Positions 28,175 through 47,415 of a stretch of 64,000 nt of DNA are shown in pieces. The DNA comes from Callorhinchus milii (lineage: Eukaryota). Location: contig NW_024704742.1 in the NCBI RefSeq assembly GCF_018977255.1, forward strand, positions 132,868,001-132,932,000. The letters are read 5' to 3'. The notes under the pieces are model-generated. The model ran no database searches, was not told the DNA's origin, and saw only the letters and a program-made list of their open reading frames with translations. The position numbers and the translations under genes were made by a program. Positions within the stretch are counted from its first letter, which is position 1. Each line of letters starts with the position of its first letter.

Positions 28175-28404
28175 TCAAACGATCCCCGTGCCTGTGAGGT
28201 ACGTGCCAGCCTCCAACATCAGTGCCTTTGTGTAGACCACCAGGGTGTAGTAGAGGGTGAGGAAATCTTGCGTGCTGAAGATTGTGTCGGACAGTGCAAA
28301 CCCCAACATGGACGGAATAAACCCACGTCCGTACTCCACCATCCAGGTTCCTGAGCTCCAGCGAACGGACGTGGCCTCGCCCATGGAATGGACGATAGTG
28401 TCGC
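28175..28404 (-). CDS. SIGMAR1: SIGMAR1 exon 4 (last coding exon)
   Basis: ccgcag|GC GAC ACT: (G)[75 protein letters not shown], with the VEYGRG motif containing the ligand-binding Glu; stop TGA at 28175-28177. Confidence 0.97.
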
Positions 28405-28972
28405 CTGCGGAAATTACAGAAACAAATAGCTCAGTGGAGTCCTGTAGCTCAGTAGCTAGAACATTCGCCTCGCAAGCGAGAGGAGCTGGGTTGGATTCCC
28501 GGGCAGGGCGAAACATTGGGCAAGTTTCCTGACTCCACCCACCTCTGTTTAATAGTAATAAAACCTAATAATGAAGGGCCCCGTTCTAGGCACTCAGGAG
28601 CAAGGATTGTTATTTGCTATAATAATAATAATCCTTGCATTTGATATAGCGTTTTATCACGTCTTCGAGACATCTCAAAGTGCTTCACAGAATATACTGT
28701 AAAGTGAATTGACTGTATTGTGCGAGAAATGTGGCAGCCAATTGTGCACAGCAGTGTCCCCACAAACAGTCGTGGTTCTGTTTACCTAGTAGTAAGAAGG
28801 AACCCAGTTGTTATTCGACTGGCAGATCGCTTTTTCGAGGGTTTAATACCACACCGCCCCAGAAAAAAAAAAAAAAAAAAATTTGGTCACTTAATCCACG
28901 ACTGCTTGTGGGACACTGCTCTGGGCAATTGGCTGTCAAGTTTCGCCCAGATAACATACAGTCACCACACTT

Positions 28973-29295
28973 GGAGTCCTGTAGCTCAGTGGTTAGAGCA
29001 CTCGCTTTGCAAGCAAAGCGACCGGAGTTCAATTCCAGGCAGAGGGCGAAACTTTGGGCAAGTTTCCTTACTCCACACGGAGCCTAATAATAATCCCTCC
29101 AAAACAAAACAATAATAAATTGGTCATTTTCAATCCATGACTGTTTGTGGGACACTGCTGTGCACAATTGGCTGCCGCGTTTGCCCACAAATATACAGTG
29201 AATTCACTTTACAGTATATTCTGTGAAGCGCTTTGGGACGTCTAGAAGACGTGAAAAGCGGTATATCAAATGCAAGGATTATTATTATTATTATT
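28973..29295 (+). mobile_element. Young short-form SINE in SIGMAR1 intron 3
   Basis: Same family as 15566-15889. Confidence 0.92.
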
Positions 29296-29789
29296 CAGTA
29301 TATTCTGTGAAGTGCTTTGAGACTCCTCGAAGATGCAATAAGGTGCTATATCAAATGCAACGATTATTATTATTATAATAATAAAAAAAAGGAAATAAGA
29401 ATCCTCGTGCCTGATTGCTTAGAATGGGGGGGCCCTCCAGCGGGTCGATTGCAGTTAGGTGACACTCTCTTGCGCATGATCAAAAATTCAAAAGGAAGGA
29501 GTGATAGAACCGTGTTGTGATTCAAGTCCAATTGATAATGAAGGCAGACACACAAAGTATTTCATGCATCTCGAAATAAAAATATAAACTTTAATATTTA
29601 AACTGCAGTCCATGTTGCTCCTTCCTCTTGTTTTTATTGAGCGTGCACAAACTAATCAACCGGCCTAGAAAGTCAAACGTCTTCGCAGATAATTGCTGTT
29701 AAGGGTAGTGACTGTTTATTTGCAGGTGAATGTAGCAGCCAAGCCAATTTTTGCACAACTATTCACATATCAAACCCTCTGTCAGGTTC

Positions 29790-30170
29790 CGGTTGGATAT
29801 AGATTTGGCCGGGTGGGGGAAGATAACCGAAGGCACGGTTGAAAAGGAATGTCTTGAGATGGGCCTTGAAGGGAAGAAGCAAGGCTGAGGGGCTCCAGGA
29901 TGGAGTGCCAGAGGGTGAGGGCAGAAAGGTTGAAGGCCTGACTGACAATAATAGAGCAGGCAGGGCAGGGGACTTAGAGCAGGCCAGTGCCTGTAGAGTG
30001 GAAGGAGAGCCAGGTTGGTGAAGTTTTAACAGGTCGCAATGATGGGGTGGAGAAAGACTGTGGAGGGCTTTAAAGGCGAGAGCGAGGATCTTGAACTCGA
30101 TCCTCTGAGGCACGGGGAGCCAGTGAAGCCAGACGAGAATGGGGTAATCAGCTCAATGAGGTTAGTGCGG
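29790..30170 (-). mobile_element. L2 LINE 3' fragment
   Basis: PQRIEFKILALAFKALHSLSPP motif. Confidence 0.8.
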
Positions 30171-30205
30171 GAAAGGAAACTTCGGAAACATAGGCACACA
30201 CTGAC

Positions 30206-30298
30206 CTGGATAAAATATTTCACTTTTAGTCGTCCCTTCTTTCCACTGCTGAAAGGTTCCCGATATAACAGTGTCAGACACTTCAGCCCAATACCGAC
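30206..30298 (-). CDS. SIGMAR1: SIGMAR1 exon 3 (93 bp, phase 1-1)
   Basis: catag|GT CGG TAT TGG...TAT CCA G|gtcagt: (G)[30 protein letters not shown](G); same boundaries as the human exon. Confidence 0.96.
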
Positions 30299-30607
30299 CT
30301 ATGATTTCCAACAAACACAATTCACAGAGTTAGACCGACATGTGAGATCATGCTTACTTTTTACTGACCCACAAATTATCTTCAAAAGTATTACTAAACA
30401 ATAAGCCTTTCACGTCGGGAGGACTCTTCAAAGTGCTTCACAGAATTTTACTGTTCCATGTGTATTCTGTGGACAAATGCAGTCCCAATTTGTGCACAGC
30501 AATGTCCTGCAACAAGCCATGGAGTGAATAATCAATTTTATTTGGGGGATTGGACACTGGAAGAAACTCCCTTCTCTTATCAAATAGCACCACTGGATCC
30601 TTAATGT

Positions 30608-30923
30608 GGAGTCCTGTAGCTCAGTGGTTAGAGCACTCGCTTTGCAAGCGAGACACCTGGGTTCAATTCCAGGCAGAGGGCGAAACCTTGGGCAAGTTTC
30701 CTTACTCCACACAGAGCCTAATAATAATCCCTCCAAAAACAATAATAAATTGGTCATTTTCAATCTACGACTGTTTGTGGGACATTGTTGTGCGCAATTG
30801 GCTGCCACGTTCGCCCACAAATATACAGTCAATTCACTTTACAGTGTGTTCTGTGAAGCGCTTTGGGACATCCTCCGGACGTGAAAAGCGCTATATCAAA
30901 TGCAAGGATTATTATTATTATTA
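30608..30923 (+). mobile_element. Young short-form SINE in SIGMAR1 intron 2
   Basis: Same family as 15566-15889. Confidence 0.92.
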
Positions 30924-33005
30924 ATGTCCAGCTGAACAGGCAGAAAGGCACGAGACGTCTCACCTGAAGGACGGCAAGTCTAGCGATACAGCAAACACTG
31001 TATTGGAGCATTAGCCTAAAAACCAGATCTGAAAAGAACATGCTTTAATTATATTAAGTCCTGACATGGGACTTGAACTCGCGTCCCTTGAACATGCGTC
31101 ACTTGAACTAGGCAATTCTATCTCAGAGGCGAGAATGCTACCAACGTAGCCAGACTGACACAGAAGATCTTTCTTTTAAAAAATTAAGAACACTATCCAG
31201 TTATCAAGGATCCTTTATACGTGGGAAACGAGTTGCAGAGTTTTGTCCAGGTCTGGTACCTCCATCAGCTCAAACAGGACTGAAATAACCGAACAAATGA
31301 CAGTGGGAAGCAATGCATCAGGAAACGATGGAGCTGATTCAACAGTGTCAGTTTATAGACAAGACAGTTCACTTCATTTGGCAGTAAGTTATTTCCTGGC
31401 CAATCCTCTAAATACTTTAGTGGAACCTTAGTTTGACAAAACACCTGTCACACTTGCCTACATATCACTACACTTGGCAGCAATTACCTATGAATTGCTT
31501 TGACATATTTCAATGTTTTATAGGGTTACAAGCCATTTGGCCCAACTAGTCCATTCCGGTGTTTATACTCCATCCCTTCCAATCTCCCCTTTATGTATGC
31601 CTTATGTTTTCTCTTCAGTGACTGTTTGCACTGCACGGCAAGGGATATGGGGATAGGGCAGGTAAGTGGAAATAGGTTAGAAGATCAGCCATGATCGTAT
31701 TAAATGGTGGGGCAGGCTCGAGGGGCCGAATGGCCTACTCCTGCTCCTATGTCTTATGGTCTTAAATTCCCTATGGGATCTACCACTGACCACTTTATAT
31801 TTGTATAATATATACAAATGGAAATATATACAAATATATATACAAATATACAAATATATACAAATGCTCTATAAATGGAATCTTGTTGTCTTGTTGTTGT
31901 TGTTGTATCCTCTAATTTTGGACTCACTAACAAATGGAAACAGCTCATTAATGTCCACTTCATCAAATCCTTTTAGAATCTTAAATACCTCAATTATCTC
32001 CCCTCACAATCAACTCAACCTACATTTATAGAGAATCCTTCACATCAAGACATCTCAAAACTCAAAAGTCATAGCTATTTATGTGAAGCGTTTTCAATGA
32101 TAACCAAAATTATGATCGACAAGATAGTTCTTAAGATTGCAATATTAAACGTAAGGATTATTATAATGAGCACTCCTCGACTGATGCACAATTGCAGAAT
32201 GATAAACACAGGGCAGGGAAGAACAACAGCTTTTTTTNAATGCTAATAAGAGTTTTAATTTAATTAAGAATTCTGTCTGCTGGAGGCTGAGACAGTGCCA
32301 CCTTCTGATAGAGCTTCTTTGTCTCTGGAGAATAAGAGGAAACAGCAGATCCTGGCACCAGCAGAGTCTTTGGCAGGAAGTTAATTTGCATTGGAGATAA
32401 AGAGAGAGGAAACAAACAGCGTAGAAAGGGAATGATAGCCTGCAGAGAGGGAACCTGAAGTGAAGAGACCGATTCAAAGTATGTTAGCACGTTAACAACT
32501 TAACATTCTGTACATTGTACCTTTCACATAGGACGAATGTCTCAAAGCACAGGTGCTAAACAAAGACGTGGTCAAGTTTGTCGGAGGGGGGGTGTTGAAA
32601 GCAGGAAAAGATGAAGACATTTTGGAAGAATTACAACAACATTACTGGCATTTACTATATATAGTGCCTTTCATATGGGTTAGCGTCTCTGAAAGTGTGA
32701 ATTATTAATACTTTGTATACATAGATGTACACATGAGGGAGAAGGGAATAGAAGGCAGGGAGTAAGGAACTGATGGAGACTCATTGAGTATAAACACTGG
32801 CATAGACTTGTTGGGCCGAATGGCCCATTTCTGTGCTGTCCAGCACCCTGGGACGTTTTCCAGACGTGAAAGGCACTATACAAATGTAATTTTGTATTGT
32901 ATATTCTATGGGGGATTCACAACAACAAGTTGGATTTACATATAGTGCCTTTCAGGGAGTTCCAGGATTTGGGGCACAGCAGCTGATAGCTGAGCCATCG
33001 ATGGT
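30913..33005 (+). repeat. Left arm of a 2.09-kb near-identical inverted duplication (SIGMAR1 intron 2 sequence)
   Basis: Reverse complement of 41241-43331; the ORF track shows mirrored ORFs (31243-31431+ vs 42812-43000-, 32680-32883- vs 41363-41566+). Confidence 0.97.
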
Positions 33006-33374
33006 AGGAGATCGCATCAACCACGGCAACAAAATTACACTTGTGAAGTGCCTTTCACGTCGGGAGGACGTCCCAAGGTCCTGGACAGACAGAATTACGG
33101 ACCCGAGCTGTCGATAGTGGGGCGAGCGAGGCGGGGGACGCGAAGCGGGCTGGAGAACATATTAACGAGAGATCCAAGAAAAGTGTTGCCGCTCGGCATC
33201 TCATCGTGTGAAAAGCGCTGTATCAAATGCAAGGATTATTATCGTTGTGGTCATTATTATCCTCTCGCCCTCTGTGGACGCACTGGGGATGAAGACACGA
33301 GAGCTGATTACTCTTATTTACAGGGGGGGAAAAAAAAACTTAACGGCAGTGGAAACACTTTGTCGCTGCTTTAC

Positions 33375-33420
33375 CGCTGGGGTGGAAGGACTGAAGCAGA
33401 TCGGTGACCTGCGGCTCCAT
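33375..33420 (-). CDS. GALT: GALT exon 1 coding part (MEPQVTDLLQSFHPS+G), on the opposite strand to the rest of GALT in this assembly
   Basis: gagccATGGAG...CCCAGCG|gtaaag: strong Kozak and a phase-1 donor that joins exon 2 to give ...[20 protein letters not shown] box lies about 55 bp upstream, and the exon is head-to-head with SIGMAR1 exon 1. Confidence 0.85.
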
Positions 33421-34743
33421 GGCTCTCCTCGCTCTGACTCCAGGCTCGGGGCTGATTCATTCACTCCAGGCTATTGGCTGCTCAGTCCCGTGAAACATCA
33501 TCTGATGCAAAACAAAACAACTCCACTGGTTGCATTTCATTTTCATTCTTGACAGCATTTACGTACATAGAGAGAGAGAGAGACACACACACACACAAAT
33601 AAATAGAGCAAAGCAAGGTCATTGCATGGCTTTTATTCGCTTCTCTCTAAATGTTCGCCTGGAGATTCTGTTCAGAGAGATTTCTTAATGTATCTTCAGA
33701 CCGACTGTATTAACTGTACCCTTGAAACCCTGTCGCCATCGATAAGTCCGTGTTTTAAGATTGGTTCCATTATTATAGGCATGTTTTCTTTCTTACTTAT
33801 TGTGTCGGGGCATATAATCCACCCCCCCACCCCATCCCTCCCTCCCCACCCCCACCCAAAGCCTAAAGTCTGTTATAATAATTCTTACACGTGTTATCGC
33901 GTCTTCCGCACGGGGAGGACGTCTCAGAGCGCTTGGCGGGATATGCTGAAAGGCGAATCGAGGCCGTGTCCCCACAAACAGCGACCAAATTATTATTATT
34001 ATTATTATTATTTTTCGTGGGGGAAGGAACTATTATCCCCAGTAAAGCGCTGCACGGATCGACTAACAACCGGGTTCCCGCTCTCGCCGCCGGGTAAACA
34101 GAGGCGGGTGGAGTAAGGGGACGTGTCTGAGGTCCCGCCCGCCCGCCCGCCCGCGGGACGTCCTCTCGCTCGCGAGCCGAGCGCTCCAACCACTAAGGCG
34201 CCCAATTGCGAAGCTCCACGATATCACCGGATCACCCCGGTCCCCATTGCAACCCCCGTGTCATCCCCAACCCCATATTTTCCCCATCCCCCCCCCACCC
34301 CATATGTCATGTCAAGTCATGTCATCTCATCCCCACGTGACCCCCCCCCCCTTGAGCACCATCGCCTCTGCTCTGCCCTCTCAACACCGCTCAGCAGCCA
34401 ACGAGGTGGCCAACCACCGCAGGGCGAGCAGCCGGTCGGCCCGTTCAGCGGCCGCGCTCTCAACCGAACGCAGTGGGGGAGGCGGGACCAGGGCAACGTC
34501 CGCCGGGCGTCGATTGGTGCAGCGGCGGCGGCCGCGACTGCCGATTGGCGGACAGCGGCGGTCAGTCAGTCTCAGTCGGTCAGTCGATTCGCTCGGTCAA
34601 GTGGGAGGGGCGGGGCCGTCAGGTTAGGTTGACGCGAGCGCGTGCGGACGGCGGCGGCTCGAGCTGAGGCCGAGAGCAGCGGAGAATCCCGGGGTGTGGG
34701 GCCGAGGCGAGGCCGCTGTTGCCCGGGGGTGGGCGTGGGGGCG
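33421..34743. promoter_or_regulatory. Head-to-head GALT/SIGMAR1 promoter region with CpG island (about 34050-34880)
   Basis: 1323 bp between divergent ATGs; dense CpG; ATTGG (CCAAT) boxes near 33472, 34513 and 34544; GC box ggggcggggc near 34607. Confidence 0.8.
33873..34196 (-). mobile_element. Long-form SINE embedded in the promoter, GC-shifted
   Basis: Retains cgactaacaaccgggttcc, ggtaaacagaggcg, tggagtaagg and cctctcgctcgcgag...gctccaaccact. Confidence 0.8.
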
Positions 34744-34879
34744 ATGGCGCTGCTGGTCCGGGCCCTCGCTGGGGCCTGTGCGGCGGCGCTCGCGGTGCTG
34801 CTGATCCGCTTCTGGCTGAGCAGCAAACACTACGTGATGAGCGGCACCGAGGTGGCCGGACTGGCGAAACAGTATGCAG
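34744..34879 (+). CDS. SIGMAR1: SIGMAR1 exon 1 (N-terminal transmembrane helix)
   Basis: gcgATGGCG...: MALLVRALAGACAAALAVLLIRFWLSSKHYVMSGTEVAGLAKQYA(G)|gtaact; hydrophobic segment plus the conserved LAKQYAG; lies in a CpG island. Confidence 0.93.
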
Positions 34880-34905
34880 GTAACTGGGGGCTGAGGGGTG
34901 GCCTT

Positions 34906-36846
34906 CCCCCACTGACCGACCCCCTCCCTCCCCCCCACTGACCGACCCCCTCCCTCCCCCCACTGACCGACCCCCTCCCTCCCCCCACTGACCGACCCCC
35001 TCCCCCCCCCACTGACCGACCCCCCCTCCCCCCCACTGACCGACCCCCCCCCCCCCACTGACCGACCCCCTCCCTCCCCCCCACTGACCGACCCCCTCCC
35101 ACTGACCGACCCCCTCCCACTGACCGACCCCTCCCTCCCCCCCACTGACCGACCCCCTCCCCCCCCACTGACCGACCCCCTCCCACTGACCGACCCCCTC
35201 CCACTGACCGACCCCCTCCCTCCCCCCCACTGACCGACCTCCTCCCCCCCCCCACTGACCGACCCCTCCCTCCCCCACTGACCGCCCCCCCCCCACTGGG
35301 ACCCTGCCCCCCCCCCTCCACTGGGACCCTGCCCCCCCCCCACTGGGACCTGCCCCCCCCCCACTGGACCCTGCCCCCCCCCCCACTGGGACCCTGCCCC
35401 ACTGGGACCCGCCCCCCCCCCACTGGACCGCTGCCCCCCCCCACTGGGACTGCCCCCCCCACTGGGACCCTGCCCCCCCCCACTGGGACCCTGCCCCCCC
35501 CCCCACTGGGACCCTGCCCCCCCCTTGCCCACTGGGACCCTTCCCCCCCCACTGGGACCCTGCCCCCCCCCACTGGGACCCTGCCCCCCCACTGGGACCC
35601 TGCCCCCCCCTTCCCACTGGGACCCTCCCCCCCCCCACTGGACCCTGCCCCCCCCCCACTGGGACCCCTCCCCCCCCCCCCCACTGGACCCCTGCCCCCC
35701 CACTGGGACCCTGCCCCCCCCCACTGGGACCTGCCCCCCCACTGGGACCCTGCCCCCCCCGGGACCCTGCCCCCCCCCACTGGGACCCGCCCCCCCCCCA
35801 CTGGGACCCTGCCCCCCCCCCACTGGACCTGCCCCCCCCCCCCCCACTGGGACCGCCCCCCCCCCCACTGGGACCCTGCCCCCCCCCACTGGGACCCTGC
35901 CCCCCCCCCCACTGGGACCCCTGCCCCCCCCCCCACTGGGACCCTGCCCCCCCCCCTGGGACCCCCTGCCCCCCCACTGGGACCCTGCCCCCCCCCCCAC
36001 TGGGACCCTGCCCCCCCCCCCACTGGGACCCTGCCCCCCCCCCACTGGGACCCTGCCCCTCCCCCCCCCACTGGGACCTGCCCCCCCCCCCCCCACTGGA
36101 CCCTCCCACTGTGCCCCCCCCCCCCCACTGGACCTGCCCCCCCACTGGGACCCCCCCCCCCCCCCCTGGACCCTGCCCCCCCACTGGGACCTGCCCCCCC
36201 CACTGGGACCCTGCCCCCCCCCCCACTGGGCCCTGCCCCCCCCCCCCCCCATGGGACCCCCCCCCCCACTGGGCCCCCCACTGTGGCCCCCCCCCACTGT
36301 GGCCCCCCCACTGTGGCCCCCCCCCCACTGTGGCCCCCCCCCCACTGGGCCCCCCCCCCGTGCCCCCCCCCCCCCCACTGGTGCCCCCCCCCCACTGTGC
36401 CCCCCCCCCACTGTGCCCCCCCCCTGTGCCCCCCCCCCCCACTGTGCCCCCACCTGTGCCCCCCCACTGTGCCCCCCCCCACTGTGCCCCCCCCACTGTG
36501 GCCCCCCCCCCCCACTGTGGCCCCCCCCCCCACTGTGGCCCCCCCCCACTGTGGCCCCCCCCCCCCACTGTGGCCCCCCCCACTGTGGCCCCCCCCACTG
36601 TGCCCCCCCCCCACTGTGGCCCCCCCCCCCCACTGTGGCCCCCCCACTGTGCCCCCCCCCCCCACTGTGCCCCCCCCCCACTGTGCCCCCCCCCCCACTG
36701 TGCCCCCCCACTGTGCCCCCCCCTGTGCCCCCCCCCCACTGTGCCCCCCCCCCATCCCCCCCCCTGTGCCCCCCCCCCTCTGTGGCCCCCCCCCCCCCAC
36801 TGTGCCCCCCCCCACTGTGGCCCCCCCCCCCACTGTGGCCCCCCAC
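34906..36846. repeat. C-rich minisatellite in SIGMAR1 intron 1: Cn-ACTGACCGA, then Cn-ACTGGGACCCTG, then Cn-ACTGTG(G)
   Basis: About 1.9 kb of poly-C runs with a near-invariant CCACTG anchor; the G-rich minus strand gives the Gly-rich pseudo-ORFs. Confidence 0.97.
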
Positions 36847-37479
36847 AGTAACTGACCCCCTCCTCTCCCCCTTCTCTTCCCCCCCTCCCACACACACACA
36901 CACTAACCCTAACTGGGAGCTCGGAGTATTAATAATAATAATCCTTGTATTTGATGTCGCGCTTTATCACGTCGTTGAGACGTCTCAAAGCGCTTCACAG
37001 GATTTACTGTAAAGTGAATTGACTATAATTTTGTGCGCAATTACAGTCATAAATGATGATAAATTGTTCACTTCAATCCACGACTGTTTGTGGGAAACCA
37101 CTGCGCGCAATTGGCTGCTGCGTTTCGCCCACAACTATACAATCAATTCACTGCAGTATATTCTGTGAAGCGCGTTTAGGACGTCTCGATGACGTGATAA
37201 AGTGCTATATCAAATGCAGGGATGATTATTATTATAATAGAGTTGGCTCCCAGAAGGGTAAGACTGTAGCAGTCGCTAACAAATACACAGTCACTCCACT
37301 TTACACTGAATCCTGTGAAGCACTTTGGGACGTTCTCCTGACGTGAAAGGCGCTCTGCAAAATGCAAGAATTCATTAATTTTGTGTAATACCAGAATACT
37401 TGCATTTGATATAGTACCTTAATGCGCTGTGGAGAAATCTCTCGAGATTTCAGTCTGAACTGTTGTTTGTGACTGTTTG

Positions 37480-38040
37480 CTCACCCCTCGTCAGCCTTCC
37501 CAGCTATTGCTTCCACAAGCTGCAGATCATGCAGAACTCTGCAACGAGTGTCCTCTCCTGCACCAGGCTCTGTGACCCGATCACCCCCGTCCTCACCCGG
37601 CTCCACTGGCTCCCCCTCCCCCAGAGGATTGAGTTCAAAGTATTCATCCTCTCCTTCAAAGCCCTCCACGGCCTTGTTCCTCCCTACCTCTGTGACCTGC
37701 TATCTCCAGAGAGACCAGTCCGCTTCCTCCGCTCAGCGGACTCCGGGCTGCTCCATGTACCCCACCCAGCCCGCTCTCCCATCGGCGATCAGGCCTTCAG
37801 CCTCTCTGCCCCCACCCTCTAGAACTCCATCCCCCAGTCCCTTCGCTTTGATCTGTCCCTTACCTCCTTCGAGGCTCCTCTCAAGTCCTTCTTCAACTAC
37901 ATCTTTGGTCACCCTCCTACCCCTTCACTCCATCCTTCCTGGTCCCAATCTCCAGTTCGGGTTCAAATCCCTGAACTGTCCAGCGCTTTGCAATATCCTC
38001 CTGACAAGAAAGATGCTATAAAATGTAATTTGTTGTTGAC
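37480..38040 (+). mobile_element. L2 LINE 3' fragment
   Basis: LQIMQNSA...LHWLPLPQRIEFKVFILSFKALHGLVPPYLCDLL; (TTG)n tail. Confidence 0.88.
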
Positions 38041-38304
38041 TAGCGCCCTGGGATCTTTAAGACCCCTGTTTTCCCTTCTGTTTGCATGCCTCCACACTCT
38101 TTGTTGCCTTAAATTCAATGTATGTACTTGCTGTATTACCCAGTCAAAAGCCATCCTGAAAAATTCCAAGTGTTTTATGTCAACTTGTGGAGGGAAGCTT
38201 GTGTATAATAATAATAATAATAACTTGCATTTGATATTGCGCATTATCATGTATTCGAGACATCTCAAAGTGCTTCACAGGATGTACCGTGAAATGTAGT
38301 GACC

Positions 38305-39105
38305 GAGCCACAAGACCACGGTTCTCCTGATTGGCTCCTGTCAGCGCCTTCTCACCTCAGGCGCTGACAGCATCACCATCCATGGTTGCACCCTCCACCT
38401 CGCTAAGCCAGTCCAGAACCTTGGGTCTTGTTTGACCCTCAACTATCCTTTCTACCCCACATCTGCCCCATGACCCGCTCTGCCTTCCCCCACCTCCGCA
38501 ATGTTGCCCGGCTCCGACAACTCACACTACAGGCCGCTGAAACACTCATACACGCCTTCATTACATCGAGGCTCGACTATGCAAACTCACTGCTTGTCGG
38601 CCTCCCCAACTCCTCTGTGCATAGGCTGCAGATCATCCAGAACTCTGCAGCCCATGTCCTCTCCCGCACCAGGCTCCGCGACCTTATCATCCCTATCCAC
38701 GCCCAACTCCACTGGCTTCCCATCACACAGAGGATACAATTCAAGATCCTGGTCCTCACCTTCAAAGCCCTCCATGGTCTTGCTCCCCACTACTTCTCTG
38801 ACCTCCTAACCTGCTATCACCCTGTTTGCTCCCTCCGCTCAGCGGGCTCTGGCCTGCTTCACTTCCCCCACCTTGCTCGCCCGACTATCGGCGGGTGGGC
38901 TTTCTGCCACTCTGCATCCACCCTCTGGAAGTCCATCCCCCAGTCCCTCCGTCTCGCCCCCTCCCTCGCCACCTTCAAGACCGTCCTCTTCGACCGTGCT
39001 TTCGATCTCCCTGCTTCCCCGGCCCCCTCCCCCAACCTTACCCTTAGCTCAGGTCCGTAACTGTCTGTCCAGCGCCTTGGGATGTATGTAATGTAATTTT
39101 GTTGT
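38305..39105 (+). mobile_element. L2 LINE ORF2 C-terminal fragment
   Basis: ORF 38428-39060: FDPQLSFLPHI...HAFITSRLDYANSLL...LHWLPITQRIQFKILVLTFKALHGLAP. Confidence 0.9.
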
Positions 39106-40883
39106 ATGTTTTTGTGGGCGAAACGCAGCAGCCAATTGCACAGTAGTGTCCCACAAACAATTGTGGAGCGAGCGACCAAATTTACTTGGGGGATTATCGG
39201 CCAGGACACAGGGAGTGAGAGAGAGAGTATAATCTTGTCAGTAAGACTGAGGTGACATTGAGTAGAATGAGATATGTGACAATGGTTTGAGATGTGGCAG
39301 ATGTTAAATGCCACACTCGCAGCCTCAAGGTGTGATCAGTCTTCTTTTCATAACTTTCCGTGATGACTGCATTGTGCAGCTCTGTGAAGCCATAATTGGT
39401 AACGTTCCTCATGCAACATTCATTGGGTGTTGAGTGTGCTGAATTGGCTGCAATGCTTCCATAGTTTGTGGTGCGTTTAATAGATTGTAACAGCCCCCAA
39501 GGTTTAGACTGGGCATAATAGGCTGCAGCATCCCCGGGGTTTAGAATTTGTTAGACATTCTGTAACACGCCCAGAGTTTAAAATTTGCTTTATACCCAGT
39601 ATTATACCCTGTTTTTAGCGATATGCTATCAAGGTCTTTGATGCACCTGTTGCACAGACTGTAGTTAATAATAATCCTTGCGTTTGATATAGCCCCTTAT
39701 AATAATTATAATAATCCTTGCATTTGATATAGTGCCTTATCACATCTTTGAGATGTCTCAAAGCGCTTCACAGAATATATTGTGAGGAGTGACAGTGTAT
39801 TTTGTGGGTGAAACAGGGTAGCCAGTTGCACACAGCAGTGTCCCACAAACAGTCGTGGATTGAGTAACAATTTTTTTTAGAGGGATTATTACCCCAGAAA
39901 GCGATCAACCAATCAACTAACAGTGGAGCAAGGAAATCTGCTTAATATACTCAAGGTTTCCAGTGATTTCCAGGAGTGCAAGAGCAAAACTCAGGTCTTT
40001 AGTTAGTCAATAAAACCGGAGGGTCATGTTGAAACCATCAATAACAGTGTCATTTCTAATATGAGTGGTTTCTGAATTTACGTGTGTACTATATGTGTGT
40101 TATACACGTACAGTGTATGTCTGTTCCACTCCCCCTGAAAGCCGCTGTCATCACACACCACCTCAAAAAAACCCACCCTCGATCCCTCTAATCTCTCACA
40201 CTACCATCCCAACCTTCCCTTCCTTGCCAAAGTCCTGGAACGCATCGTTGCAGGTCAACTTCGGTCACACGTCCACTCCCTCCTCGAGCCCCTGCAGTCT
40301 GGTTTTCGCCCTGCCCACAGCATAGAGACAGCGCTTGTTAAAGTCACAAACGAATAGTACATAATACATCTGGACTTTTTTTTGCCGAGTCATCAAATTA
40401 GAGGCCAGAGAACACAAATGACTTCATCTTTTAGCAACTTCATCCTGTGGAACCTTGAAGTTCTATGTTGAAGAGAATCTCACTGAATGTTGTAGCGTGG
40501 AAACAGGACATTCAGCCCAACTCATCTGTAAGGCTATTTATATTCTACATGAATTTCCAGACTTCAGCAGTTTCCCCAGGGCACACTGGACTCTCCCCAA
40601 GCCAGCTAACCTTGCTAACCTGCACCTAATATTTTCCGATATCAGGTGAGCAGGATGCATCTCTTGGGAGAAAGGCACCCATACATACTACAGTGTATAG
40701 GTACTCACAAAGAGCCGGGATTAGGATTAGAGTAGTTAGCTCCAGTGAATGAGCGAGCACCAGTTCAGGTTTGTTGGGCCGAACAGCCTGTTGGTTGGTG
40801 TATTGCATGGGATTCTGTATGCACAGGTGGAAACGGTAATGGTGGAGTCTTAAGTATGGCCATTATCACACCGTGTATTTCAG

Positions 40884-41084
40884 GTCTGGATCACGAGCAG
40901 GCGTTCACAAAGGTGGTGGTGGAGCTGAGAAAGAAGTACCCCGGCCACATTCTCCCTGACGAGGACCTGCAGTGGATCTTTGTCAACGCTGGGGGGTGGA
41001 TGGGCTCCATGTGCCTCCTACACGCGTCCTTGACTGAATACGTGCTGCTCTTCGGGACCGCGGTGGATACCGGGGGGCATTCAG
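40884..41084 (+). CDS. SIGMAR1: SIGMAR1 exon 2 (201 bp, phase 1-1)
   Basis: tttcag|GT CTG GAT CAC...CAT TCA G|gtacag: (G)[66 protein letters not shown]. The four exons sum to 660 nt = 219 aa plus stop. Confidence 0.97.
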
Positions 41085-41240
41085 GTACAGTTTGATTCTT
41101 TACAGAGCCGCGCTCGCTACACATAATCAGGCACTACACTTTATAGTGCATCCATGAAGCACATTGAGATGCTTCCATGTCCCAATGAGGTGCAGTATTA
41201 AATACAAGGATGATCTTCACATCCTCATCCCATCCACTCC

Positions 41241-43331
41241 ACCATCGATGGCTCAGCTATCAGCTGCTGTGCCCCAAATCCTGGAACTCCCTGAAAGGCA
41301 CTATATGTAAATCCAACTTGTTGTTGTGAATCCCCCATAGAATATACAATACAAAATTACATTTGTATAGTGCCTTTCACGTCTGGAAAACGTCCCAGGG
41401 TGCTGGACAGCACAGAAATGGGCCATTCGGCCCAACAAGTCTATGCCAGTGTTTATACTCAATGAGTCTCCATCAGTTCCTTACTCCCTGCCTTCTATTC
41501 CCTTCTCCCTCATGTGTACATCTATGTATACAAAGTATTAATAATTCACACTTTCAGAGACGCTAACCCATATGAAAGGCACTATATATAGTAAATGCCA
41601 GTAATGTTGTTGTAATTCTTCCAAAATGTCTTCATCTTTTCCTGCTTTCAACACCCCCCCTCCGACAAACTTGACCACGTCTTTGTTTAGCACCTGTGCT
41701 TTGAGACATTCGTCCTATGTGAAAGGTACAATGTACAGAATGTTAAGTTGTTAACGTGCTAACATACTTTGAATCGGTCTCTTCACTTCAGGTTCCCTCT
41801 CTGCAGGCTATCATTCCCTTTCTACGCTGTTTGTTTCCTCTCTCTTTATCTCCAATGCAAATTAACTTCCTGCCAAAGACTCTGCTGGTGCCAGGATCTG
41901 CTGTTTCCTCTTATTCTCCAGAGACAAAGAAGCTCTATCAGAAGGTGGCACTGTCTCAGCCTCCAGCAGACAGAATTCTTAATTAAATTAAAACTCTTAT
42001 TAGCATTAAAAAAAAAGCTGTTGTTCTTCCCTGCCCTGTGTTTATCATTCTGCAATTGTGCATCAGTCGAGGAGTGCTCATTATAATAATCCTTACGTTT
42101 AATATTGCAATCTTAAGAACTATCTTGTCGATCATAATTTTGGTTATCATTGAAAACGCTTCACATAAATAGCTATGACTTTTGAGTTTTGAGATGTCTT
42201 GATGTGAAGGATTCTCTATAAATGTAGGTTGAGTTGATTGTGAGGGGAGATAATTGAGGTATTTAAGATTCTAAAAGGATTTGATGAAGTGGACATTAAT
42301 GAGCTGTTTCCATTTGTTAGTGAGTCCAAAATTAGAGGATACAACAACAACAACAAGACAACAAGATTCCATTTATAGAGCATTTGTATATATTTGTATA
42401 TTTGTATATATATTTGTATATATTTCCATTTGTATATATTATACAAATATAAAGTGGTCAGTGGTAGATCCATAGGGAATTTAAGACCATAAGACATAGG
42501 AGCAGGAGTAGGCCATTCGGCCCTCGAGCCTGCCCCACCATTTAATACGATCGGCTGATCTTCTAACCTATTTCCACTTACCTGCCCTATCCTCATATCC
42601 CTTGCCGTGCAGTGCAAACAGTCACTGAAGAGAAAACATAAGGCATACATAAAGGGGAGATTGGAAGGGATGGAGTATAAACACCGGAATGGACTAGTTG
42701 GGCCAAATGGCTTGTAACCCTATAAAACATTGAAATATGTCAAAGCAATTCATAGGTAATTGCTGCCAAGTGTAGTGATATGTAGGCAAGTGTGACAGGT
42801 GTTTTGTCAAACTAAGGTTCCACTAAAGTATTTAGAGGATTGGCCAGGAAATAACTTACTGCCAAATGAAGTGAACTGTCTTGTCTATAAACTGACACTG
42901 TTGAATCAGCTCCATCGTTTCCTGATGCATTGCTTCCCACTGTCATTTGTTCGGTTATTTCAGTCCTGTTTGAGCTGATGGAGGTACCAGACCTGGACAA
43001 AAACTCTGCAACTCGTTTCCCACGTATAAAGGATCCTTGATAACTGGATAGTGTTCTTAATTTTTTAAAAGAAAGATCTTCTGTGTCAGTCTGGCTACGT
43101 TGGTAGCATTCTCGCCTCTGAGATAGAATTGCCTAGTTCAAGTGACGCATGTTCAAGGGACGCGAGTTCAAGTCCCATGTCAGGACTTAATATAATTAAA
43201 GCATGTTCTTTTCAGATCTGGTTTTTAGGCTAATGCTCCAATACAGTGTTTGCTGTATCGCTAGACTTGCCGTCCTTCAGGTGAGACGTCTCGTGCCTTT
43301 CTGCCTGTTCAGCTGGACATTAATAATAATA
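41241..43331 (-). repeat. Right arm of the inverted duplication, ending in a SINE (TTA)n tail at the assembly gap
   Basis: Reverse complement of 30913-33005; followed by 25 N. Confidence 0.97.
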
Positions 43332-43356
43332 NNNNNNNNNNNNNNNNNNNNNNNNN
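43332..43356. other. Assembly gap (25 N)
   Basis: Run of n. Confidence 1.
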
Positions 43357-43615
43357 GTCAACGCTGGGGGGTGGATGGGCTCCATGTGCCTCCTACACGC
43401 GTCCTTGACTGAATACGTGCTGCTCTTCGGGACCGCGGTGGATACCGGGGGGCATTCAGGTACAGTTTGATTCTTTACAGAGCCGCGCTCGCTACACATA
43501 ATCAGGCACTACACTTTATAGTGCATCCATGAAGCACATTGAGATGCTTCCATGTCCCAATGAGGTGCAGTATTAAATACAAGGATGATCTTCACATCCT
43601 CATCCCATCCACTCC
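43357..43615 (+). other. SIGMAR1: Second copy of 40982-41240 (3' half of SIGMAR1 exon 2 plus the start of intron 2) immediately after the N gap
   Basis: Apparently identical 259-bp repeat at offset 2375; it diverges from the first copy exactly after ...catccactcc. Confidence 0.95.
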
Positions 43616-44661
43616 GTTACTTTTGATCCCTTCGCTGCCTTGAGTCTTCTCCGCCCGCTCAAGTCCTTTTGCATGTTGCAAAATTGTAACCCGTTTGGGC
43701 TCTGAATCGCTTTGATCTTTCCCTTTTGCAACTTAACTTTTGCGGTCACTGATTTCTTCTTTCGTTTCGCCAATGCAGGAAGGACTCTCACATCGCGTCT
43801 TGTGTGTGTGTGTGGGGGTGGGGGAGGGTATTTGTGCTGCCCTCTGTTGGTGTGATTTCTTGTTCACTGATGCTATCGACGAATCACTAAAGTATTTTTT
43901 TAAACAAAATAATAACACCTGCATCCGATAATAATAATAATAATTATCCTTTGTTTGATATAGCGCGTTGTCACATCGTTGGCAGAATATATGTAACGTG
44001 AATTGACGTCCATGCAGTGAATGACCAATTTTATTTGAGACCAGACGATGGAGGTCACTGCGAGGGAGCAATTCGCTTCCCCTTCTGAATAGTGCCACAG
44101 GATCTTTAATGTCCACGTGCACAGGTAGATGCGACATTTATTTAACTTTGGCCCTCTCTTATCGGCCTTCAAAGGATTCCTGAAAACCTACCATTTTGAC
44201 CGTGCCCATAGTCACTCTCCCCCCCACTATCCCCCACGCTTAGTGCCCAGCACTCTGTGTAAAGTGCTTTGAGACGTTAACTCTGCATGAACGTTTTTCT
44301 AACTAGGAATGATGACAAGGAGCGTAGCCTTTTGTAATGGCACAAATTATCAGATCGAATGGTTAACTGAACTTGGCTGTGCTCCCAGCATGTGTGCGCG
44401 TGTGTATGTCTGTGCGTCTCCGGGTGTGTGTGTGACTGTGTTTTGATGCCTATGCGTACCATTTTGTGTGTGTGCAGGTGACATCCAGTCGTATGTGCGT
44501 GACTTTAATAATAATCCTTGCATTTGATACAGCGCCTTATCATGTCATTGAGACGTCTCAAAGCTCTTCACAGACTATATTACAAAGTGGTTTGAATGTG
44601 CATGTAGTTACGTAAGGTGGCAGGTAATTGCGCACAGCAGTGTTCAACATACAATCATAGA

Positions 44662-46349: not shown

Positions 46350-46622
<273 letters not shown>

Positions 46623-47339: not shown

Positions 47340-47415
47340 GTGAACCCAGATTATGACAGTACCTACATCTTCAGTAATGATTTCCCAAGTCTGCAGCCTG
47401 ATGCCCCAGAACCAG
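47340..47415 (+). CDS. GALT: GALT exon 3 (76 bp)
   Basis: ttaaag|GTG AAC CCA...CCA G|gtacgt: VNPDYDSTYIFSNDFPSLQPDAPEP(G). Confidence 0.96.

Follow-up and report, generated by a model that had tools for sequence, protein, structure and literature searches.

The SIGMAR1-GALT locus

The window analysed here, a 64-kb stretch of the elephant shark (Callorhinchus milii) contig NW_024704742.1, contains exons of the SIGMAR1 (sigma-1 receptor) and GALT genes in a rearranged order. It is a mosaic in which the two junctions of an inversion of 8,235 bp occur together with one normal junction, a gap of 25 N, and an inverted duplicate of 2.1 kb that shows errors of the homopolymer type. The features are as follows:

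28404-28175, minus strand: SIGMAR1 exon 4, coding part (230 nt including the stop), with the equivalent of E172
30298-30206, minus strand: SIGMAR1 exon 3 (93 nt, AG/GT), with the equivalent of D126
30299..33374, minus strand: chimeric GT-AG intron of the putative fusion (3,076 nt, of which 369 nt are GALT intron 1 and 2,707 nt SIGMAR1 intron 2)
30913..33005: segment X, SIGMAR1 intron 2, with a second, inverted copy at 41241-43331
33005..33006: junction J1 of the inversion, between SIGMAR1 intron 2 and GALT intron 1, free of N
33006..41240: inverted block (8,235 bp) with GALT exon 1, the probable shared promoter and SIGMAR1 exons 1-2
33420-33375, minus strand: GALT exon 1, coding part (46 nt, phase 1, GT donor), GALT residues 1-15
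33800..34800: CpG-rich stretch between two divergent start codons (GC 0.54-0.77, CpG observed/expected 0.64-1.22)
34744..34879, plus strand: SIGMAR1 exon 1, coding part (136 nt), with the transmembrane helix (residues 3-21)
34883..36850: minisatellite, rich in C, within SIGMAR1 intron 1; its C-runs vary irregularly in length
40884..41084, plus strand: SIGMAR1 exon 2 (201 nt, phase 1 end), with 7 of the 12 listed pocket residues
41240..41241: normal (uninverted) SIGMAR1 intron 2 junction, crossed by an old repeat fragment
41241..43331: X', the inverted second copy of X, 99.6% identical, ending at the gap
43332..43356: assembly gap, 25 N
43357..43615, plus strand: perfect direct repeat (259 bp) of 40982-41240, a stretch that takes in the last part of SIGMAR1 exon 2 and the first part of intron 2
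43615..43616: J2, the reciprocal junction of the inversion, between SIGMAR1 intron 2 and the remaining GALT intron 1, free of N
44109..44124, plus strand: short coding exon that serves as the alternative start of a predicted GALT isoform of 353 aa (P0337); it is not part of the inverted block
46423..46592, plus strand: GALT exon 2, phase-1 acceptor
near 47340, 48210, 48800, 50725 and 60260, plus strand: later GALT exons

GALT exon 1, which codes for just 15 variable residues, was placed by tblastn with residues 1-15 of P0217, while SIGMAR1 exons 3-4 occur as a single copy within the 64-kb window. Judging from its composition, the CpG-rich stretch is likely to be a bidirectional promoter shared by the two genes. 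The species records for the elephant shark include an intact SIGMAR1 (219 aa, P0121) and an intact GALT (363 aa), the two RefSeq models concerned being XP_042196317.1 and XP_007901313.1, and a 183-aa model has SIGMAR1 exons 2-3-4 in colinear order.

Predicted fusion products

A sequence-only reading of this DNA had proposed that GALT exon 1 is spliced to SIGMAR1 exons 3-4 on the minus strand, and the details of this proposal are borne out: the GT donor of GALT exon 1 lies ahead of the AG acceptor of SIGMAR1 exon 3, the frame is open, and the exon lengths (46+93+230 = 369 nt) give 122 aa without an internal stop. The description of the product as contiguous is correct in that the sequence between the exons contains only a single N, but the intron is chimeric, and a second, inverted copy of 2.1 kb of its sequence stands beside the gap. 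The 122-aa product is residue-for-residue identical to XP_042187874.1 (P0122), entitled 'sigma non-opioid intracellular receptor 1' [Callorhinchus milii] without mention of the GALT start. This record was likely drawn from the same assembly and hence gives no independent support; being a prediction, it was rejected as proof that the fusion is expressed. Among the 80 matches of the near-length protein search none was an elephant-shark representative, since the 122-aa protein is itself a member of the P0001 cluster.

Both introns are of phase 1, a coincidence with a chance of roughly one in three, and the in-frame joining of GALT to SIGMAR1 is not beyond chance expectation. The reciprocal SIGMAR1::GALT product (460 aa) is in frame as well, owing to the same single coincidence of phase, and both fusions use canonical native splice sites and open frames. 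Since the stop codon of the 122-aa product lies in the last exon, nonsense-mediated decay of its transcript would not be expected.

The SIGMAR1 part of the 122-aa product corresponds to human residues 118-223. It matches PF04622 (ERG2/Sigma1R) with E 1.6e-31, over only positions 109-204 of the 210 in the profile. The N-terminal transmembrane helix is missing (maximum 19-residue hydropathy within the first 30 residues -0.22, vs 2.42 in the intact protein). As had been claimed, exons 3-4 retain the ligand-binding Glu (the equivalent of E172), and the equivalent of D126 is kept likewise. Measured against the published pocket list (V84, W89, M93, L95, Y103, L105, F107, I124, D126, W164, E172 and L182; PMC6736580), the product keeps 5 of the 12 residues and loses 7, including Y103; at the trimer interface 11 of the 19 listed residues are kept and 8 lost. 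The AlphaFold model of the 122-aa product is of low confidence (pTM 0.38; TM 0.37-0.40 to solved sigma-1 receptors), as is that of the full-length control (pTM 0.61; TM 0.70-0.81; pLDDT <50 over much of the barrel), and the alignment A1 sets 15 GALT residues against unrelated SIGMAR1 columns, which makes the fold comparison weak evidence.

With neither a membrane anchor nor any signal, the 122-aa product is predicted to be cytosolic, apart from the luminal BiP. Its nearest studied counterpart is the human SIGMAR1 fragment 112-223, the C-terminal chaperone domain; this fragment binds BiP in micelles, is mostly helical rather than barrel-like, aggregates in water, and was examined in detergent (PMC3774411). 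The human fragment was recombinant and kept in DPC micelles, whereas the shark fusion would begin with 15 GALT residues and would have no route into the ER lumen.

The 460-aa product retains GALT residues 17-363 including the HPH motif at 172. A SIGMAR1::GALT protein was found neither among 182 matches of 98-2000 aa nor among the 3 members of either elephant-shark species cluster; this absence is weak evidence because no elephant-shark record there has a transcriptome-contig (Logan) source. The human topology reporter SIGMAR1(1-113)-GFP-APEX2 resembles the fusion in having a near-identical leader (shark 1-112, human about 1-117) followed by a soluble passenger, and its passenger is delivered into the ER lumen (PMC6053353). 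The reporter is an engineered mammalian construct. By analogy, the 460-aa product would likely carry its GALT part into the ER lumen and so separate it from the substrates in the cytosol. The topology of SIGMAR1 is disputed, the crystal-structure paper having assigned the C-terminal domain to the cytosolic side; were this correct, the GALT fusion might be active.

Origin of the inverted arrangement

The inverted arrangement of SIGMAR1 and GALT is likely to be either a broken allele of a single animal or a mistake in the assembly. Neither J1 nor J2 contains a gap, their left breakpoint is the same to the nucleotide, and the normal junction occurs alongside them. A repeat fragment (31 nt, 87%, E 3e-5) crosses the normal junction; in spanning controls, repeats crossed 68 of 187 native positions vs 6 of 200 random joins, and the normal join is therefore taken as ancestral. 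Each of the 20-mers at the GALT-side breakpoint is unique within the window. Apart from one match of 67 bp (87%), which is on the same strand and off the breakpoints, the breakpoint regions show no substantial similarity to each other, so there is no obvious repeat on which an assembler could have mis-joined; inverted similarity amounts to an 11-bp word. The normal GALT-side junction was not found in the 64-kb window, which leaves exact reciprocity unproven, nor was a repeat found across the inferred normal GALT-side join.

Several origins of the junctions were considered and rejected. Recombination between inverted repeats lacks a homologous inverted pair at both breakpoints, and a simple fold-back read chimera does not agree with a block that is single-copy and not palindromic. 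Microhomology (GGAG after the normal left breakpoint and one base past J1) is a weak candidate, as matches of 4-5 bases occur at other offsets. Our searches returned no literature on an inversion joining SIGMAR1 and GALT.

On balance we lean slightly towards an animal heterozygous for the inversion, as judged from the sequence. The assembler would then have followed the inverted haplotype across J1, passed over to the normal one at 41240/41241, come to a halt at the gap, and resumed on the inverted haplotype across J2; the 8,235-bp block would derive from a young inversion, the break having been mended by end joining, which is suggested because no inverted repeat pair lies at the breakpoints. 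The competing view, to which we give a little under an even chance, is that the 8.2-kb block was mis-oriented in contig building, scaffolding or gap filling, that in the animal itself the two genes stand solely in their normal head-to-head arrangement, and that the 122-aa RefSeq protein is a by-product of gene prediction. The rearranged structure adjoins the 25-N gap, where it stops with duplicated flanks on either side; this counts against a real inversion, as does X', which differs from X by 1 substitution, 1 N and 5 small indels (4 of them within single-base runs), lacks two bases that a related repeat copy has, and so bears the marks of low-quality extension sequence. The noisy C-rich minisatellite inside the block is a likely low-coverage spot, the other elephant-shark records are all normal, and the reciprocal fusion protein was not among the recorded proteins. 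The run of 25 N may be a mark of long-read gap filling.

The layout recalls the overfilled gaps described after such filling (PMC3504050, PMC9635638), with non-overlapping extension into the gap and duplicated flanks; inversions are a suspected cause, and PMC3504050 names inversions and mistakes in the input assembly as part of it. The shark assembly may have gone through such a gap-filling step. Against mis-orientation stand the gap-free J1 and J2 with their common left breakpoint and the want of an inverted repeat for mis-joining. Furthermore, a simply mis-oriented contig would be expected to leave gaps at both ends and, combined with normal reads, to put the start of the GALT intron to the right of the gap, where the end of SIGMAR1 exon 2 is found instead.

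Predicted consequences for the two genes

If the inversion is real, its geometry is as the sequence-only reading had inferred, with both promoters and N-termini swapped and both fusions in frame. The further suggestion that this swap spares the allele from being a double null is not supported. A segregating allele with a working anchor-less sigma-1 fragment and/or a membrane-tethered GALT could draw on the native splice sites, the stop codon in the last exon, the closeness of the 122-aa product to the BiP-binding chaperone domain, the retained GALT residues with their HPH motif, the crystal-structure placement of the SIGMAR1 C-terminal domain in the cytosol, and the RefSeq listing of the 122-aa protein. 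We nevertheless regard it as very unlikely: the fragment would miss luminal BiP and has lost most of the pocket and 8 interface residues, its human counterpart is largely helical and aggregates without detergent, its model matches the receptor fold less well than the control (both at low confidence), the SIGMAR1(1-113) reporters are luminal (PMC6053353), and the frame match is a single chance event.

Equally slim is the chance of a real but one-sided lesion, in which SIGMAR1 is lost and GALT activity is kept, either by a fusion that is tethered to the ER and faces the cytosol or by use of the alternative first exon at 44109. GALT exon 1 contributes only 15 variable residues, the predicted 353-aa isoform starts downstream of J2, and the topology of SIGMAR1 is disputed; but this isoform is a prediction, its separate promoter is hypothetical, and the in-cell reporter (PMC6053353) favours a luminal C-terminus. 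Taken broadly, a segregating 8.2-kb inversion whose reciprocal fusions are both expressed and include one or two working products (a cytosolic chaperone fragment or an ER-tethered GALT) appears highly improbable. Nor would rescue be required for the inverted allele to persist, as the single knockouts are viable: Sigmar1-null mice survive and are fertile, and galt-null zebrafish show normal survival with reduced fertility.

The reading we prefer, to which we assign an even chance, is a young heterozygous inversion whose two in-frame hybrids are both predicted to be non-functional. The 122-aa product would be made in the cytosol with an incomplete barrel and exposed hydrophobic helices, and would be degraded or aggregate, while the 460-aa product would carry GALT into the ER lumen; the allele, paired with a normal copy, would be recessive and would amount to loss of function in both genes. 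Inversions that break two neighbouring genes in head-to-head or opposite-strand order form a known class that gives rise to reciprocal fusion transcripts. The present arrangement resembles this class in having one inversion, two intronic breakpoints and two in-frame hybrids, and differs in being known from one assembly alone and lying beside a gap.

The main use of the finding is as an annotation warning: XP_042187874.1 (122 aa), listed as elephant-shark SIGMAR1, opens with the N-terminus of GALT and is unsuitable as an orthologue, the intact protein being the 219-aa record P0121. If the inversion is real, it provides a simple PCR marker and a naturally occurring allele with loss of function in both SIGMAR1 and GALT, each of which has a human orthologue that causes recessive disease. 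A bearing on wider questions, namely whether the C-terminal domain of the sigma-1 receptor can act as a chaperone without its anchor and which side of the ER membrane this domain faces, would require that a fusion be expressed and active; an active ER-tethered GALT, if it exists, would in addition report in vivo, and without any engineering, on the disputed topology of the sigma-1 receptor.

Order of the locus and the fused frame

Self-comparison divides the window into A, X, M', X', gap, Y and B, in that order. X is a segment of SIGMAR1 intron 2 and X' its inverted second copy. M' is an inverted block in which a CpG-rich stretch separates the divergent start codons of GALT exon 1 and SIGMAR1 exon 1; beyond the latter lie a C-rich minisatellite and SIGMAR1 exon 2. 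The window holds three joins: the inversion junctions J1 (33005/33006) and J2 (43615/43616), both between SIGMAR1 intron 2 and GALT intron 1 and sharing a left breakpoint identical to the base, and the normal SIGMAR1 intron 2 join (41240/41241).

Features of the rearranged locus
28404-28175, minus strand: SIGMAR1 exon 4, 230 nt
30298-30206, minus strand: SIGMAR1 exon 3, 93 nt
30913-33005: X, recurring inverted as X' (41241-43331) with 99.6% identity
33006-41240: M', inverted block, 8,235 bp
33420-33375, minus strand: GALT exon 1, 46 nt
43332-43356: gap of 25 N, directly after X'
43357-43615: direct repeat right of the gap, exact copy of 40982-41240
44109-44124, plus strand: predicted alternative GALT first coding exon, 16 nt, including an ATG and followed by a GT donor

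The minisatellite (34883-36850, SIGMAR1 intron 1) is ~2 kb long and C-rich; its units change over its length and its C-runs are uneven. Its G-rich strand could form quadruplexes and hinder sequencing. The sole N outside the gap lies at 32238, within a T-run of X, and corresponds to a plain base in X'.

GALT exon 1 and SIGMAR1 exons 3-4 have canonical GT-AG ends and form an open frame of 369 nt (122 aa), so the assembly bears out the three exons and the product proposed in the sequence-only reading. The peptide encoded by exon 4 matches C. milii SIGMAR1 at 100% identity and orthologues from sharks and rays at 84-89%. RefSeq already lists the 122-aa product as a prediction, XP_042187874.1, named plainly as sigma-1 receptor, which is likely derived from the same assembly as the window and therefore lends no independent support. 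Two bird RefSeq "isoform X2" models (P0157, P0165; 123 aa) also combine a foreign-looking N-terminus with SIGMAR1 exons 3-4, probably of other origin, namely a frameshifting splice.

Ancestral order and origin of the rearrangement

An old repeat fragment (31 nt, 87%, E 3e-5) spans the normal join 41240/41241. Neither inversion junction, nor the normal GALT join as inferred, has a spanning repeat match better than E 0.65; in controls, spanning occurred at 68 of 187 native positions vs 6 of 200 random joins. Judged from these sequence comparisons, the uninverted order is ancestral. The intact C. milii protein records (219-aa SIGMAR1, P0121; 363-aa GALT, P0217 and P0338) agree with it, and the 183-aa model P0001 has SIGMAR1 exons 2, 3 and 4 colinear. 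We take V9-type accessions to be cDNA-derived and A0A4W3-type accessions to be Ensembl models of an older assembly. Intact SIGMAR1 and GALT cannot be encoded colinearly in the window; cDNA may have been used to complete the P0121 and P0217 models where the assembly has its gap, or there may be another copy. A longest contig of the same size is listed for P0121, P0217 and the 122-aa model. SIGMAR1 and GALT accession or locus numbers lie close together in a skate, an electric ray, a sturgeon and a minnow, which suggests that the pair is old.

We lean slightly towards a real heterozygous inversion, and regard an assembly artefact as a serious, somewhat less probable explanation. In favour of the inversion, J1 and J2 are both gap-free, each 20-mer at the GALT-side breakpoint is unique within the window, and the breakpoints have no inverted repeat pair, the sole substantial match (67 bp, 87%) being same-strand and displaced; moreover, a mis-oriented contig extended by normal reads would not place the SIGMAR1 exon-2 end right of the gap. 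However, the rearranged structure terminates at the gap, X' departs from X at 1 substitution, 1 N and 5 indels, of which 4 fall in single-base runs, and X' is two bases short relative to a related repeat copy. A paper on gap filling (PMC3504050; cf. PMC9635638) names inversions and assembly mistakes as suspected causes of overfilled gaps, and a step of this kind may have been used for this assembly. No SIGMAR1::GALT protein was found among 182 hits or in 3/3 members of either species cluster, a weak negative that also points towards artefact. The case belongs with known inversions that break genes, or else is an assembly error that imitates one; literature searches for SIGMAR1, GALT and inversion, and for Callorhinchus and sigmar1, returned no description of this rearrangement.

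Predicted properties of the two fusion products

With human residue number equal to fusion position + 102, the 122-aa fragment spans human 118-223 and retains D126 and E172. According to the residue lists of PMC6736580, it lacks 7 of 12 pocket residues (V84, W89, M93, L95, Y103, L105, F107) and 8 of 19 trimer-interface residues, and its match to the ERG2/Sigma1R profile PF04622 is limited to positions 109-204 of 210. The anchor is absent, as proposed: the N-terminus is hydrophilic (maximum hydropathy -0.22 vs 2.42 in the native helix), so the fragment would be synthesised in the cytosol. The sequence-only reading is correct on the chaperone activity of C-terminal fragments: PMC3774411, citing earlier primary work, credits this domain with chaperone activity and BiP binding. 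The same paper, however, describes the 112-223 fragment as aggregating in water and mostly helical in detergent. AlphaFold models of the fusion (pTM 0.38; TM 0.37-0.40 vs solved receptors) and of the intact control (pTM 0.61; TM 0.70-0.81) are both of low confidence and carry little weight.

Because SIGMAR1 intron 2 has the same phase (1) as GALT intron 1, the reciprocal join is also open: SIGMAR1 exons 1-2 continue into GALT exon 2 (46423) with a predicted product of 460 aa, retaining GALT 17-363 and its HPH motif. Phases match by chance roughly one time in three, and the two open fusion frames are one coincidence, not two. The galactose-1-phosphate pathway is cytosolic. A human SIGMAR1(1-113) leader brings its passenger into the ER lumen (PMC6053353), and such placement would likely separate fused GALT from its cytosolic substrate; SIGMAR1 topology is disputed, so an active tethered GALT is conceivable. 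A predicted GALT isoform of 353 aa (P0337) begins with the exon at 44109-44124, in GALT intron 1 and outside the inverted block, and is another possible escape from GALT loss. By eye, this exon looks similar to repeats at other places in the window.

Possible persistence of the putative inverted allele, and annotation

The sequence-only reading suggested that the inverted allele may be a reciprocal swap of N-termini and promoters instead of a double null. Its geometry stands, both frames being open; given the anchor, pocket and interface losses and the aggregation of the human fragment, we consider a functional swap as originally stated very improbable, and still improbable when a GALT-only variant is included. 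Mice lacking Sigmar1 are viable and fertile, and in humans the alleles are recessive (PMC8293995). Zebrafish without galt show normal growth and survival but lowered fertility; neither the number nor the quality of eggs differed significantly between heterozygotes and wild type (PMC5786655). By analogy with these phenotypes, a recessive double loss over a normal copy would be near-invisible to selection, and any persistence of the allele would call for no special mechanism, including the rescue by swapping suggested earlier. The main present value of the finding is as a warning on the 122-aa RefSeq model.
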